64,000 nucleotides of DNA. It comes from Candidatus Methanomethylicia archaeon (GTDB lineage: Archaea > Thermoproteota > Methanomethylicia > Culexarchaeales > Culexarchaeaceae). Position 1 is the stretch's first letter, and each line of letters begins with the position of its first letter. Made by a program: the position numbers and the translations under genes. Shown in pieces: positions 31,981 through 64,000 of the stretch. The DNA lies in contig JAVYVS010000005.1 of assembly GCA_038727515.1 (NCBI GenBank), forward strand, positions 32,001 to 96,000, written 5' to 3'. The notes under the pieces were generated by a model. That model had not been told where the DNA came from. It ran no database searches and was given only the letters and a program-made list of their open reading frames with translations.

Positions 31981-34194
31981 TTGGTTAAGTATAAAACTAC
32001 TGAACAAATATTGAAGATAATGGATGCATTAGATAATGTTAGAAATATCGGTACTTTAGCGCATGTTGATCATGGTAAAACTACTTTGTCTGATTCTCTT
32101 CTAATGGCTGCAGGTCTTATTTCTCCCAAAGTTGCTGGTAAAGCTCTCGCTTTAGATTATGTTCCAATAGAGCAAATGAGGCAGATGACTGTTAAAGCTG
32201 CCAATGTTTCTCTTTACCATGAATATAATGGAAATGAATATTTAATTAATCTTGTTGATACTCCTGGGCATGTTGATTTTACAGGTCATGTTACGAGGTC
32301 GTTGAGGGTTATGGATGGTGCTATAGTAGTTGTTGATGCAGTTGAAGGTGTTATGACACAAACAGAAACTGTTGTTAGACAGGGATTAGAAGAAAGAGTT
32401 CGTCCACTTCTATATGTAAATAAAATTGATAGATTAATTAGAGAACTCAAGCTTACTCCAGAAGAAGTTCAACATAAATTATTAGAGATAATTAGAGATT
32501 TTAATAATTTAATTGATTTATATGCTGAACCAGAATTTAAAGAATTATGGAAGATCAATCCTTTAAAGGGGCAGATGGCATTTGGTTCTGCATTACATAA
32601 ATGGGGGCTAACAATACCCATAGCGCAAAAAGCTGGAATTAAGTTTAGTGAAATAGTTAAAGCTTATGAGAAAGGACCTGAAGAAGTGGCTCATTTAGCT
32701 GAAGATTTCCCATTATATAGAGCAATTTTAGATATGGTTGTTCAACATGTTCCAAGTCCAAGAGTGGCTCAAAAATATAGAATACCTAAGCTTTGGCGTG
32801 GAGATATAGATAGTGAAATTGGGCAATCTATGCTTAAATGCGACCCTAAAGGTCCTCTAGTTGTTTGTGTAAGTAAGATAGTTGTGGACCCTCATGCGGG
32901 TCTTGTAGCTACAGGTAGAGTTTTCAGTGGAATGGTTAATAGTGGTGATGAAGTTTACTTACTAATGGCAAAGAGAGCTGGCAGAATTCAGCAAGTAGGT
33001 TTATACATGGGGCCTTACAGAGAAGTTGTAGATAGAGTTCTTGCTGGAAACATTGTTGCTATTCTTGGTTTAGACGATGCTAGAGCTGGTGAAACCATAG
33101 TTGATGTTAACTATAAGGATGTTATGTTTCCCTTTGAAAAATTGGTTTATATAAGTGAACCTGTAGTTACTGTTGCTCTTGAACCTAAGAAAAGCGCTGA
33201 ACTTCCACGTTTAGTAGATACTTTAAGGAAAATGGCTATAGAAGATCCAACATTACACGTAAAAATAAATGAGGAAACCGGAGAATATTTGATTAGTGGT
33301 ATGGGGACGTTACATCTAGAAATTGCTTTATGGGATTTACAGCAACGAACCGGTGGAATAGATATAGAGGTATCTCCTCCTATAGTGGTTTATAGAGAAA
33401 GTATTAAGGGTTCTGCTGGACCTATAGAAGGTAAATCTCCAAATAGGCATAACCGGATATACATTAGTATTGAACCTCTTGATGAAAATACTTTAAGATT
33501 ACTTAGTACTGGTGCTGTTTATGATGATCAAGATTGGCGTACAAGAGCAAAGATTCTACGTTCTGAAGCTGGATGGGATGCTGATGAAGCTAGGGGTATA
33601 ATGGCTATTGATGAGCATCTAAACATATTTGTAGATGTAACTAAGGGTATTCAATATCTAAGGGATATTAGAGAAACACTTATATCTGCCTTTAGATGGG
33701 CTATGGAGGCTGGACCATTGGCCCATGAACCTATTAGGGGAGTTAAAGTTAAATTAGTTGATGCAATGGTTCATGAAGATCCAGCTCATAGGGGGCCTGC
33801 TCAAATAATGCCTGCAACTAGAAATGCTATTTTTGCAGCTTTCCTTTCTGCTTCTCCAATAATTTTGGAACCCGTTTTAAAAATGGATGCAAAAGTTCCA
33901 CAGGAATTCGTCAGTGGATTACTTCGAGTAATAACCTCTAAACGTGGTAAAATAATAAGTATGGAAGATCAAAAGCTTCTAATGTTTGTTAAATGTCATA
34001 TACCTGTTTCGGAAACCTTTGATTTATCAGATCAGATTAGAGGTGCAACTCAGGGTAGATGTTTCTGGAGTACAGAATTTTCACATTGGAGCCCATTACC
34101 TCAACAATTAGCTGAAGATGTAATTAGACAAATTAGAAAGAGAAAGGGATTACCTATGAATCCACCAAAAGTTGAAGATTTCTTAACTCCATAA
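31981..34194 (+). CDS. fusA: Elongation factor EF-2
   Basis: AHVDHGKT, DTPGHVDF, NKID, diphthamide loop HEDPAHRGPAQ; TTG start after GGAGGG. Confidence 0.98.
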   Translation: MVKYKTTEQILKIMDALDNVRNIGTLAHVDHGKTTLSDSLLMAAGLISPKVAGKALALDYVPIEQMRQMTVKAANVSLYHEYNGNEYLINLVDTPGHVDFTGHVTRSLRVMDGAIVVVDAVEGVMTQTETVVRQGLEERVRPLLYVNKIDRLIRELKLTPEEVQHKLLEIIRDFNNLIDLYAEPEFKELWKINPLKGQMAFGSALHKWGLTIPIAQKAGIKFSEIVKAYEKGPEEVAHLAEDFPLYRAILDMVVQHVPSPRVAQKYRIPKLWRGDIDSEIGQSMLKCDPKGPLVVCVSKIVVDPHAGLVATGRVFSGMVNSGDEVYLLMAKRAGRIQQVGLYMGPYREVVDRVLAGNIVAILGLDDARAGETIVDVNYKDVMFPFEKLVYISEPVVTVALEPKKSAELPRLVDTLRKMAIEDPTLHVKINEETGEYLISGMGTLHLEIALWDLQQRTGGIDIEVSPPIVVYRESIKGSAGPIEGKSPNRHNRIYISIEPLDENTLRLLSTGAVYDDQDWRTRAKILRSEAGWDADEARGIMAIDEHLNIFVDVTKGIQYLRDIRETLISAFRWAMEAGPLAHEPIRGVKVKLVDAMVHEDPAHRGPAQIMPATRNAIFAAFLSASPIILEPVLKMDAKVPQEFVSGLLRVITSKRGKIISMEDQKLLMFVKCHIPVSETFDLSDQIRGATQGRCFWSTEFSHWSPLPQQLAEDVIRQIRKRKGLPMNPPKVEDFLTP

Positions 34195-42881: not shown

Positions 42882-43277
42882 TTATTCTGAGGTGAGCCAA
42901 TTTATTGCTTCATTTATTTCATCGATATTATTACATGATATTTCTATAGTTATTGGTCCAAGTGGAGATTCTCCATCTTTCTCGCAGAATGATACTTGCC
43001 CCATATATGCTGCCTGTTTATTTAAATAGAATGCTATCTTATTTTCCATTATTGATCGTTTTAATATTGCTTTTGCAGTAGTTAGTATTCTCCTTCTCCT
43101 TAATGTTTCACGTAATTTTGATAGGACTTCTATGTTATCCCCTTCTGCTATTAATGTTTTTACCCCATTTTCTTCTATTAATTTGATTGTTTCTGAATTT
43201 ATGATATTTAGTATTGCCTTCCTTACTTTTTCCTCATCTTCTGTGGGTTTCACTTCAGATTTAATTATTATTTTCAT
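42882..43277 (-). CDS. UPF0201/DUF54 RNA-binding-like protein
   Basis: PTED.EKV..AI.N, LNKQAA..G, SPLGPI. Confidence 0.85.
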   Translation of the reverse strand: MKIIIKSEVKPTEDEEKVRKAILNIINSETIKLIEENGVKTLIAEGDNIEVLSKLRETLRRRRILTTAKAILKRSIMENKIAFYLNKQAAYMGQVSFCEKDGESPLGPITIEISCNNIDEINEAINWLTSE

Positions 43278-43821
43278 GAGCTTTTACCACCTCTTCTAGA
43301 GTTTTAAATGTTATCCTCTCTAGTTCCTCTAGTGTACCTTCATTTATTATTACTTTATCTGCTAATGCTATTACTTTACCTATTCCAACTTCTAATTCCC
43401 TAAAATCTCTTTTTTCAAATTCTTCCCAAGTTTTTGGGTCGTCTTTTCTTCCTCTATCTATGAGTCTTTTAAATCTAGTTTTTGGAGATGCATGTACAGC
43501 TATTATTGTTACTTTTCCAATATTCTTAAATTCTTTAATTTCTTCTATATTTCTAACACCCTCTATTAAAATCTTATCTGATTTTATCCTCTCAATTTTC
43601 TCTATACATCTTAATGCTACTATATTTGCACCCATTTTTTCTCTTAATTCCATCATTAACCATCCAAGATTATTTGAAGTTGGTTCTATACTTCTAATTT
43701 CAGCTTCTTCTCTAATAATATCACCCATAGAGATTGTTGGTATACCCATCTTCTTTGCAATTTCACTTACAACTGTTTTTCCAGCTCCTGGCATTCCAGT
43801 AAGACATATTATGATTCTAAT
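43261..43821 (-). CDS. P-loop kinase (dephospho-CoA-kinase-like/UPF0200); probable ATT start at 43821
   Basis: IIICLTGMPGAGKT, SMGD..R, EG.R..E, R.R.DD, RD..EL..G. Confidence 0.85.
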   Translation of the reverse strand: MRIIICLTGMPGAGKTVVSEIAKKMGIPTISMGDIIREEAEIRSIEPTSNNLGWLMMELREKMGANIVALRCIEKIERIKSDKILIEGVRNIEEIKEFKNIGKVTIIAVHASPKTRFKRLIDRGRKDDPKTWEEFEKRDFRELEVGIGKVIALADKVIINEGTLEELERITFKTLEEVVKAHENNN

Positions 43822-60963: not shown

Positions 60964-61381
60964 TTTGAGGAATGTATTATCTAATTGTATTTTGACTTTC
61001 GGTCTTATGCTTTCATGTATATTGTCTTTCTCCTCTCTGAGTATCTTCTGTTATAATGTTATGGATAATGAACGCATTTATTCAACTTTAGCATGTGTTT
61101 TTAAAGATTCTATAATTTATGGTGCTCAAATATGTAAAGATCTTGGTCCAAATTCTAGTATACGTTTGAAATTAGAGGTACCAACTAAATTAATTGGGTT
61201 TACGATCTTTATACTTAATTGTGAATGTGTATTATTCGATATTAATGGAAGAATAGTCTTTAGGTTTAAGCTACCTTCTTCACCCTCTATTTCTTATGTT
61301 AATTCATCAGCCTCTATTTCTTATGAATATATTTTCATTTATTTCTACAGTCTTGATGGTAAAATATTTGTTAAATTGTAA
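60956..61381 (+). CDS. Small membrane-anchored / pilin-like protein
   Basis: N-terminal hydrophobic helix; last gene of the operon. Confidence 0.58.
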   Translation: MVDLRNVLSNCILTFGLMLSCILSFSSLSIFCYNVMDNERIYSTLACVFKDSIIYGAQICKDLGPNSSIRLKLEVPTKLIGFTIFILNCECVLFDINGRIVFRFKLPSSPSISYVNSSASISYEYIFIYFYSLDGKIFVKL

Positions 61382-63521
61382 ATTTTGCCCCCTCTAATTG
61401 TTCTTTTATCTTCTTTATAGTTTCTTCTCCCATCAACGGTATCTTCCTTAAGTCTTCAATTTTCGCCTTTTTCAAATCTTCAATAGATTTATAACCAGCT
61501 CTATATAGTAGTCTTGCCCTTACTCTCCCTATACCTCTTAACTGTACTAATTCAAGTAATTCTGGTTTGCATCCATATTCTAGTCTAGATGTTAATTCTT
61601 CAAGTTTTTGTATATGATTTGTTAATCCTAGAACTTTACATATTTCTGCAGCTGAATATGTTAACCATTGTGTTGTTAAGGCTATAGTGTATATATCTCC
61701 AGGTCCAACATCATATTTATCTATTATATCATCTTCCTTTTCTTCATTTATCCAATCATTTAACATCATAGCAGTTTTTAATGCTTGTAGCATTATTGTT
61801 TGGTCAATTTCATCTTCACATTCTTCCATGTTAATGAGTAGTTCTCCCCCCATTTCCATAATTTTTGAAATTAGTAATGATCTTTCTCTCCTCGTTATAT
61901 GTAATTTTGGCATATCTGGTGTTGTAGATACTAGGTGTAGATATGCGATTTCACTAGCCTTTCTCTTTTTCTGTAATCCTCTTATAATGTATACTGCTGA
62001 TAATGGGTCTATGTATAATTGTGATACTCTAAATCCCAGTTTTGTTGCATTCATGTATTCTCCCAAGATCTTTACCATTTCATTTTCTATTAAGAACCCT
62101 AATACTCTTCTCAGAACTTTCATTAACTGTCTTTCTTCACCATATTGTTTATAATAAAATGTTTTTCTCATGAATTCCATGATCTCTTCCTCCGTTTTGA
62201 CAAAATCTGTGGATATTATTGCAAGTATATGTGATCTTAATGCTGATTCTGAAGCTAATTTAGACCATATTCTCTCCGGTGGTGCTTTAACATAATTTTC
62301 CATTAAAAATTCTTGTTCTTGTATTGTTCTTGCTATTAATATTGCATCCCCATTTTCATCATATTTTGGTCTTCCAGCTCTCCCAGCCATTTGATGATAT
62401 TCAAGTATTGGTATTGTTTGGTATCCTGTTATACTATCATATCTATAGTAATTCTTTATTATCACTCTTCTTGCTGGTAAGTTTACTCCTGCAGCTAGTG
62501 TTGGTGTGGCACATATAACCTTTATTTTGAATTCTCTAAAACCCTTTTCAATGGTGCTTCTTTGATTCGCAGATAATCCTGCATGATGAAAAGCTACTCC
62601 ATTTCTAATACATGTAGCTAATTCTTCACTTACTCTTGTAGTTTCTTCTGATGATAGTATTTCATTCGCGATACTCATCAACTCCCTTTTTTCATTAGCC
62701 TTTATATATTTTGATATTAATGGTATCAGTTTGAATGCTGTTTCCCTAGAATTGTTTCTAGTATTTGTAAATATTAGAACTTGCCCTCCCTCTTCTAATA
62801 TTTGCTTTGTTAATGCTTCGCATGGATCCATCTTTTCCCTTGTAACTTCAATTACACTCTTATCTTCATATACTATCTTTCCATCTATGTACACACCTTT
62901 CCTTAATGGTACTGGTCTCCACTCACTCTTAATTAATTTTGCATTTAACCATTCTGATATTTCATCTGAGTTCATTATTGTAGCGCTTAAACCTATTATT
63001 TGCGTGTTTGGATTTATCAATTGTAATTTTGATAATACCACTTCGAGTGTGGGACCTCTTTCTTGATCATTTATTAAATGTATTTCATCTGCTACAACAA
63101 TGTTTATATCATTTATCCATGAAGGTTTATTTCTTAAGATGCTATCAGCTTTTTCATTGGTCATAACAATTATATCGTATTGTTTTAACCATGGTTCTGG
63201 ATTATCATAATCTCCCGTGCTTATTGCAACTTTCAACCCCGCTTCTTCATATTTCTTAAATTCTTCATATTTTTCCGATGCCAATGCTTTTAATGGTGTA
63301 AGATAAAGTGCTTTTCCTCCATTTTCAATTAATCTTTTAGTTATTGCAAGTTCTGCAATTAATGTTTTTCCAGCGGCAGTAGGTATTGCTAATACTATGC
63401 TTTTACCATTTAAAACTCCACTTTTTATTGCTTGTATTTGTGGTGGGTATAGTTCGATGATTCCATGTTTTTCTAATATATTTTTTATGGTGTTTGGTAT
63501 TGGTAATTCTCTTATCTTAAT
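61371..63521 (-). CDS. hel308: Ski2-like helicase Hel308/Hjm (716 aa if started at ATT 63521)
   Basis: LYPPQ and PTAAGKT (upstream of the ORF-track start), DEIH, SAT, FHHAGL, TPTLAAGVNLPA, QMAGRAGRP, C-terminal HhH. Confidence 0.95.
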   Translation of the reverse strand: MKIRELPIPNTIKNILEKHGIIELYPPQIQAIKSGVLNGKSIVLAIPTAAGKTLIAELAITKRLIENGGKALYLTPLKALASEKYEEFKKYEEAGLKVAISTGDYDNPEPWLKQYDIIVMTNEKADSILRNKPSWINDINIVVADEIHLINDQERGPTLEVVLSKLQLINPNTQIIGLSATIMNSDEISEWLNAKLIKSEWRPVPLRKGVYIDGKIVYEDKSVIEVTREKMDPCEALTKQILEEGGQVLIFTNTRNNSRETAFKLIPLISKYIKANEKRELMSIANEILSSEETTRVSEELATCIRNGVAFHHAGLSANQRSTIEKGFREFKIKVICATPTLAAGVNLPARRVIIKNYYRYDSITGYQTIPILEYHQMAGRAGRPKYDENGDAILIARTIQEQEFLMENYVKAPPERIWSKLASESALRSHILAIISTDFVKTEEEIMEFMRKTFYYKQYGEERQLMKVLRRVLGFLIENEMVKILGEYMNATKLGFRVSQLYIDPLSAVYIIRGLQKKRKASEIAYLHLVSTTPDMPKLHITRRERSLLISKIMEMGGELLINMEECEDEIDQTIMLQALKTAMMLNDWINEEKEDDIIDKYDVGPGDIYTIALTTQWLTYSAAEICKVLGLTNHIQKLEELTSRLEYGCKPELLELVQLRGIGRVRARLLYRAGYKSIEDLKKAKIEDLRKIPLMGEETIKKIKEQLEGAKFTI

Positions 63522-63534
63522 AGTTTTTCCTCCA

Positions 63535-64000
63535 TTATGTTGGCATTATATATCCTGGTTTTGCCTCGAAGAGAATACCCTCTTTTAATAATCTATCTAT
63601 TATTTCGATAACTGTATTTTTCGATATATCATATTCTTTTTCTATTTCTTCTGCTGCAAAATCTTTTTTGATAGGTCCTCCAATTTCCTTTACCTTATTC
63701 TTAATATAATCCATTATTACATTCATTTTATCCCTTTGAGATTTAGATTTACCTGTTAATAGAACATCTATATCTATTCTCTCGGTTTCTGTATCGTATG
63801 CTGTTTTTTCAAGTACATAGTTCATCAATTTTATTGCTGCATCTGCATCTGCTTCTGTAGCTACTTCTCTTAATGCCATTTTTGCTCTTGCTTCAGTCAT
63901 TCTCACTAATGCTTCTAATTGTCTTGGGGTTATGGGGATGCTTCCACCTTCCTTTCCAGTTTTACGCATTTCCACATAATATCTCTTTATCTTTTCTAAA
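63535..64000 (-). CDS. mcm: Replicative helicase MCM, C-terminal part (5' truncated by window)
   Basis: ITPRQLEALVR.TEA.A sensor-2, D.ET..IDID, C-terminal wH ending PGY. Confidence 0.93.
   Translation of the reverse strand, partial: LEKIKRYYVEMRKTGKEGGSIPITPRQLEALVRMTEARAKMALREVATEADADAAIKLMNYVLEKTAYDTETERIDIDVLLTGKSKSQRDKMNVIMDYIKNKVKEIGGPIKKDFAAEEIEKEYDISKNTVIEIIDRLLKEGILFEAKPGYIMPT

Follow-up and report, generated by a model that had tools for sequence, protein, structure and literature searches.

A near-cognate AUU start codon proposed for archaeal hel308 and its conservation across the class Methanomethylicia

Here we describe the junction between mcm and hel308, which encode the replicative helicase MCM and the fork-repair helicase Hel308, in a Candidatus Methanomethylicia archaeon (GenBank assembly GCA_038727515.1) whose genome spans 1.586 Mb in 12 contigs at 32.9% GC; its closest named loci are Candidatus Methanomethylicia metagenome-assembled genomes (MAGs). 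The stretch analyzed, hereafter the window, comprises 64,000 nucleotides (nt) and covers positions 32,001 to 96,000 of contig JAVYVS010000005.1, forward strand; coordinates count from its first letter unless a contig is named. Judging from gene order, hel308 is the third and last gene of a gins-mcm-hel308 operon: the full mcm open reading frame (ORF) of 683 amino acids (aa) starts with ATG and overlaps by 4 nt with a GINS-domain gene (185 aa) that also starts with ATG, and the gene after hel308 sits on the opposite strand. The hel308 frame contains 79 conserved codons ahead of its first canonical start codon, and very likely it is translated from an AUU codon at 63521 as the full 716-aa Hel308, an inherited trait of the Methanomethylicia that is specific to this gene.

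The mcm-hel308 junction and the N-terminus of Hel308

The junction and the coding sequence that follows it consist of the following features, listed in the direction of transcription.

63535..64000, minus strand: 3′ end of mcm, with stop codon TAA at 63537-63535; the gene continues past the window to C5:97586
63546..63548, minus strand: in-frame TAA, the upstream closure of the hel308 frame
63512..63535, minus strand: out-of-frame mini-ORF of 7 codons, MEEKLLR, with ATG 63535-63533 in TAATG and its TAA 4 nt beyond ATT
63529..63533, minus strand: Shine-Dalgarno (SD) sequence GGAGG, 7 nt ahead of ATT
63524..63528, minus strand: run of five A's (A5) between SD and ATT, followed by C and T
63519..63521, minus strand: ATT, the proposed initiation codon of hel308
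61371..63521, minus strand: hel308 coding sequence, 716 codons from ATT, with stop codon at 61373-61371
Codons 25-28, minus strand: Q motif YPPQ, ahead of the first canonical start
63363..63383 (codons 47-53), minus strand: Walker A motif PTAAGKT, ahead of the first canonical start
63282..63284, minus strand: codon 80, a TTG and the earliest canonical start in the frame

The original prediction, made from the letters of the window, had located these elements, and all of its coordinates and sequence details at the junction proved accurate on the minus strand. Thus the TAA within the 3′ end of mcm that closes the hel308 frame is present at 63548-63546, ATT 63521 lies 7 nt past GGAGG, no in-frame ATG, GTG or TTG occurs before 63284, so that 79 codons including Walker A precede TTG, and the out-of-frame ATG overlapping the mcm stop as TAATG does open MEEKLLR followed by a stop. 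The upstream gene is identified by a profile match of its 3′ end to the MCM domain NF040949 (E = 3e-43), and its stop codon is separated from the hel308 ATT by 13 nt. From the base composition at 32.9% GC, the chance of 87 codons with neither a stop nor a canonical start is estimated at about 1e-5.

Read from ATT, the product reaches 899.7 bits with the NCBIfam profile NF002654 (ATP-dependent DNA helicase equivalog, Hel308 type; PRK02362), above the cut-off of 887, and profile positions 2-705 (of 739) correspond to its residues 2-711. Since residue 2 falls on profile position 2, the ATT codon occupies position 1 of the profile; likewise, the residue after ATT aligns with residue 2 of Pyrococcus furiosus Hjm (2zj2), which places ATT at Met1 of Hjm. 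The Q motif YPPQ, PTAAGKT and the DEIH box all belong to the N-terminal RecA domain and form invariant columns in an alignment of 29 relatives (A1), those of Walker A being P47, T48, A49, G51, K52 and T53. Pfam matches to PF21280 (Helicase_dom4_arc, archaeal domain 4) and PF14520 (HHH_5, helix-hairpin-helix domain 5) were also found in the product. Given that the frame is shut by the TAA at 63548 and that the first canonical codon lies past Walker A, this conserved N-terminus is not encodable from ATG, GTG or TTG.

The first 79 codons change as coding sequence does, to judge from comparison with relatives of the same family, in which 42-56% of third positions differ, compared with 15-21% at positions 1 and 2. 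Furthermore, 12 of 2629 compared bases differ between the window and strain L141; 11 of these are in hel308, and all 11 are synonymous, a pattern indicating that the gene is under purifying selection. This hel308 is the single copy in the genome, the remaining matches being Ski2-like paralogues that are about 35% identical.

Signals for initiation are also in place. The 3′ end of the genome's own 16S rRNA (...GGATCACCTCCT) contains CCTCC, with which GGAGG pairs perfectly, and the 7 nt found at hel308 are also the most frequent distance from SD 5-mer to start codon among canonical starts with strong SD in this genome. An unusual initiator tRNA was looked for in the genome and none was found; the initiator is standard with anticodon CAU, so AUU would be read with a third-base mismatch.

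The aligned codon in Methanomethylicia and in other archaea

Whether the same junction recurs in related genomes, a check called for by the original prediction, was addressed in a class sample of 62 species genomes, 56 of which have hel308, and all 56 junctions were read. The boundary of the class was set by kinship labels together with the NCBI names of matching contigs, and counts across these relatives are counts of non-independent events, the genomes being akin. The codon aligned with ATT 63521 is ATT in 29 species, ATA in 13, ATC in 8, GTG in 3, TTG in 3, and ATG in none; the tally of ATT, ATA and ATC (collectively ATH, or AUH in the mRNA) includes two hand corrections, one for an ATA located one codon upstream and one for a record with a frame-shifting N. 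Every one of the 50 ATH genomes has an SD core (GGAGG, AGGTG, GGTGA or similar) 4-12 nt upstream, and in 41 of them no in-frame canonical start exists from the preceding stop to ATH. An in-frame stop lies no more than two codons upstream of ATH in 22 of the 50, and in L010, L011, L013 and L014 a TAA stands immediately before ATA, while the next canonical codon is located past the Q motif in about 25 ATH genomes. ATH and SD therefore recur across the class, and AUU, AUA or AUC at hel308 is, as far as genome comparison can tell, almost certainly an inherited and gene-specific trait of the class, not a sequencing error.

Between the mcm stop and ATH, 36 of the 56 genomes have 12-16 nt and most others up to 28 nt, about a dozen falling at 20-28 nt; peptides upstream of ATH were found not to be conserved in the relatives. 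Stop-codon readthrough or an MCM-Hel308 fusion, also one made by a fixed frameshift, was considered and rejected as the common mechanism, since with gaps of 12, 13, 14, 15, 16 nt and more the frame relation of the two genes varies, and many relatives have a second in-frame stop just ahead of ATH.

Outside the class, the codon at the ATT-aligned position was read in 80 named archaeal loci. A canonical start occupies it in 52 of them (TTG 27, GTG 15, ATG 10), which marks this codon as the start position of the family. The aligned codon is ATH in 11 of the 80; apart from Methanomethylicia (some of them loosely named at NCBI), these are the Asgard Borrarchaeum and two MAGs, one labelled Thermofilum and the other Thermoproteales. 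In another five loci, namely the Methanomethylicia MAG L033 and four from Hermodarchaeota or Promethearchaeota, ATH is shifted upstream by one codon. Three of these four Asgard loci, L064, L073 and L101 (ATT or ATA), are ambiguous, since their frames also contain a TTG at the mcm stop, 13 codons upstream. TTG or GTG is the start in most orthologues from Bathyarchaeia and in several from Hadarchaeia (loci L036-L112), mostly right after mcm. A weak start of hel308 may hence be a broader theme in these archaea, as far as raw codon counts can suggest.

ATH starts as a genome-wide habit found no support in a control within the genome of the window. A whole-genome scan of 1451 long ORFs yielded only 12 in which 25 or more coding-like codons precede any canonical start, hel308 being the longest and clearest of them. 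SD sequences are not enriched before the ATH codons in question: they precede 3.1% of in-frame ATT codons ahead of the first canonical start, compared with 3.9% of ATT within genes, and across ATT, ATA and ATC the values range over 2.5-3.1% and 3.2-3.9%, respectively. Some individual candidates came to light beside hel308, the one other clear case in the window being the following.

43264-43821, minus strand: P-loop kinase (Pfam AAA_17/AAA_18, weak adenylate-kinase match) with candidate ATT start at 43821

In this kinase gene the ATT is 7 nt past GAGGGG and has an in-frame TAG 4 codons upstream of it; the first ATG falls within Walker A (GMPGAGKT). ATT or ATA is limited to 5 of 6 genomes of the family, and elsewhere in the class this position, or one beside it, is occupied by ATG, TTG or GTG. 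Other candidate ATH-start ORFs of the same genome (G000) are on C3, minus strand (reverse-complement index 99925-100567), and on C1, plus strand, at 611886-612372 and 564977-565931; these have a coding-like stretch before the canonical start and ATT or ATA straight after a strong SD, e.g., AAGGAGGGGTGA.

As for the genomic setting, the replisome island of gins, mcm and hel308 extends past the end of the window (G000 C5:95535-100493, L175), and rfcS (329 aa) and rfcL (422 aa) are divergent from gins, about 100 nt away. That replication genes and Hel308/Hjm are associated in genomes was already noted in 2008 (PMC2643942). A stretch at G000 C1:151619-151766 (L002) has 72% DNA identity to the 3′ end of mcm and suggests an mcm paralogue. 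In three genomes of the class and of Bathyarchaeia type (G032, G035 and G051; loci L127, L117 and L121) the open hel308 frame reaches 1120-1230 aa, and database homologues of that length (P0027, P0041, P0098) bear intein and homing-endonuclease Pfam domains, which indicates that hel308 hosts inteins in some lineages.

Alternative readings of the junction

The original prediction had left three readings of the junction side by side, an AUU start, a homopolymer error and a frameshift-coupled start, and among these the AUU start has gained strong support from the 56 class relatives, the 80 archaeal loci and a solved Hel308 structure, while the other two have lost ground. It is true, as that prediction calculated, that one added A in the A5 run would restore an ATG-led frame, with a product beginning MEEKTIKIREL, and if the true genome had six A's, hel308 would have a plain ATG start overlapping the mcm stop. 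Six A's had been named as the finding that would overturn the anomaly, but independent assemblies all give five at the identical junction: JGI Ga0209823_100633, NCBI GCA_964470255.1, and the Logan contigs of SRR27730034 and SRR27022454. The first was obtained by an exact-pattern scan allowing 4-7 bases between GGAGG and CTATT, and the other three by look-up of the 637-aa product predicted from TTG 63284 (14 contigs, three with DNA); the independence of the four is evident from their strains, which show 1-12 further differences from the window. Together with the class-wide ATH, which leaves no need for an ATG, this makes a sequencing or assembly error extremely improbable. The 637-aa product also stands for another view, in which hel308 is truncated or decaying and is translated from TTG 63284 or not at all. 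Gene callers do output it, but it would be without the Q motif and Walker A, and the codon-periodic constraint on the 79 upstream codons, the exclusively synonymous differences between strains and the lack of a second hel308 in the genome leave this view with practically no probability.

A start at a different non-canonical codon nearby, such as AAG 63518 or ATA 63515, or at one upstream of ATT, is very unlikely, even though AAG and ATA are also near-cognates and the NCBI product of one relative (P0007, 726 aa) begins with an ATA that precedes ATT by 11 codons. The ATT at 63521 is the first near-cognate past the in-frame stop, at the modal 7-nt spacing and at the Met1 position of the family, and four relatives have a stop immediately before ATH. 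We give similarly little credence to a frameshift-coupled start, in which ribosomes would reinitiate at the ATG 63535 of TAATG and, by a -1 slip of tRNA-Lys within the A run (GAA AAA C), give MEEK-T-IKIREL. Overlaps of -1 nt are typical termination-reinitiation sites (PMC10666635), but the slippery site is incomplete, offering GAA AAA C only and not a full X XXY YYZ heptamer, the A run is missing from relatives in which ATH and SD persist, and no homologue has a MEEKT-like beginning. Some relatives, but not others, have an ATG or GTG that overlaps the mcm stop, and the ORFs opened by it range in length from 3 codons to more than 12 and differ in frame. RNAalifold on 12 order-level relatives gave 0 conserved pairs at the junction, arguing against a conserved stimulatory structure; a hairpin over stop, SD and ATT in the window (z = -2.6) is not shared by relatives, and a conserved junction RNA structure was accordingly rejected.

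Several order-level relatives, though not all, have mini-ORFs of 3-7 codons opened by ATG or GTG (e.g., L008, L011, L014, L005 and L017). The recurrence of ATG or GTG after the mcm stop can be read as incidental, arising wherever a T precedes GGAGG; MEEKLLR could have arisen in this way, or it could pass terminating ribosomes to ATH.

Several observations weigh against initiation at AUU as a uniform and selected trait of the class. The TAATG overlap and the A5 run offer a possible alternative entry in this species. An in-frame ATG is located 1-3 codons upstream of ATH in 4 genomes of the class, and some in-frame canonical codon is found upstream in 9, so that ATH is not an obligatory start everywhere. 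Moreover, the absence of ATG over perhaps 7 or more third-base changes is weakly significant, the events being few and the genomes related.

The two protein forms coexist in public data: a 716-aa call beginning MKIREL exists on 8 contigs, one of 1.58 Mb, and the truncated 637-aa call on 14. Standard gene finders here drop 79 residues of Hel308, including the Q motif and Walker A, and surveys of Hel308 in Methanomethylicia can be misled by the mixture of truncated and full calls.

Proposed initiation and comparison with known systems

We infer an initiation of the following kind from the anatomy of the frame, its homology, the retention of ATH together with an SD, the relatives in which upstream starts are excluded, and the agreement of the assemblies. 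A 30S subunit with aIF1, aIF1A and aIF2-Met-tRNAi would be placed on AUU by the GGAGG just past the mcm stop, and AUU would be decoded as methionine by the ordinary CAU initiator tRNA, presumably at low efficiency. In Escherichia coli, AUU, AUA and AUC yield about 1-2% of AUG (PMC5499595), and aIF1, in a system from Sulfolobus solfataricus, promotes discrimination against start codons that are not canonical (PMC6237735). The weak codon might thus hold Hel308 synthesis far below that of GINS and MCM from the same mRNA, and synthesis of Hel308 would perhaps be sensitive to the fidelity factor aIF1 and to ribosomes ending mcm 13 nt upstream. The arrangement of the operon, with ATG starts and a 4-nt overlap between gins and mcm versus AUU after a gap at hel308, fits similar amounts of GINS and MCM and much less Hel308.

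Some reinitiation by ribosomes terminating at mcm, 13 nt away, is plausible by analogy with Haloferax volcanii, in which coupling is retained to 40-60% at 13-14 nt and almost lost at 22-23 nt (PMC10666635). Since the relatives with gaps of 20-28 nt retain ATH, independent SD-led initiation would be the common denominator of the class.

It is tempting to speculate that the AUH start has been selected as a regulatory device and is more than a weak codon that is tolerated, following in an archaeon the logic of infC and IF3 in bacteria and tying Hel308 to the stringency of aIF1 or to ribosomes finishing mcm; we regard this as possible but rather doubtful. A hint of selection against AUG is given by the third base, which is T, A or C and never G, together with switches to GTG and TTG that need two base changes. 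If true, such selection would explain the third-base drift among U, A and C, never G, in the 56 species, as well as UUG and GUG in most sampled Bathyarchaeia, and the device would fix, or conditionally raise, the ratio of the fork-repair helicase to the replicative helicase.

As a natural archaeal near-cognate start that appears to be shared by a whole class and restricted to a single gene, the hel308 start would offer a concrete substrate for studying start-codon fidelity in archaea (aIF1, aIF2 and SD positioning), which so far has been approached mostly with model mRNAs. It also points to a possible translational control of the ratio between fork-repair and replicative helicase within the gins-mcm-hel308 operon. 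Among Methanomethylicia, cultivation of Methanosuratincola has been reported. A paper on an AUU start of hel308 was not found in our literature searches.

The nearest parallels are bacterial. infC, which encodes IF3 and keeps AUU or AUC for IF3 autoregulation, and pcnB of E. coli likewise have an SD-led AUU or AUC that is weak, kept within a lineage in one gene, and disfavoured by a fidelity factor (PMC5499595). In contrast to infC, hel308 is archaeal, its fidelity factor would be the eIF1-like aIF1 and not IF3, and it is a repair-helicase gene with no evident autoregulatory loop; in contrast to both, its third base drifts among U, A and C. Among archaea, a rare ATT start has been proposed in 2026 for the Asgard tubulin AtubA, where an upstream ATT at a plausible distance from the ribosome-binding site restores the conserved N-terminus (PMC13394414). 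AtubA is a single-gene cloning observation with no lineage-wide conservation analysis, whereas the ATH of hel308 is class-wide and stands in a replisome operon. The Hel308/Hjm proteins of solved structure from P. furiosus (2zj2), S. solfataricus (2va8) and Archaeoglobus fulgidus (2p6r) belong to the same family and share the N-terminal architecture, but their genes have ATG starts. Finally, the termination-reinitiation pairs of H. volcanii resemble mcm-hel308 in their very short distance from stop to start (PMC10666635). Canonical starts and an overlap of 4 or 1 nt, like that of gins and mcm, are typical of coupled pairs, whereas hel308 has a 13-nt gap, its own SD and a near-cognate codon, and the 20-28 nt gaps of some of its relatives fall in the range in which coupling in H. 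volcanii is nearly abolished.

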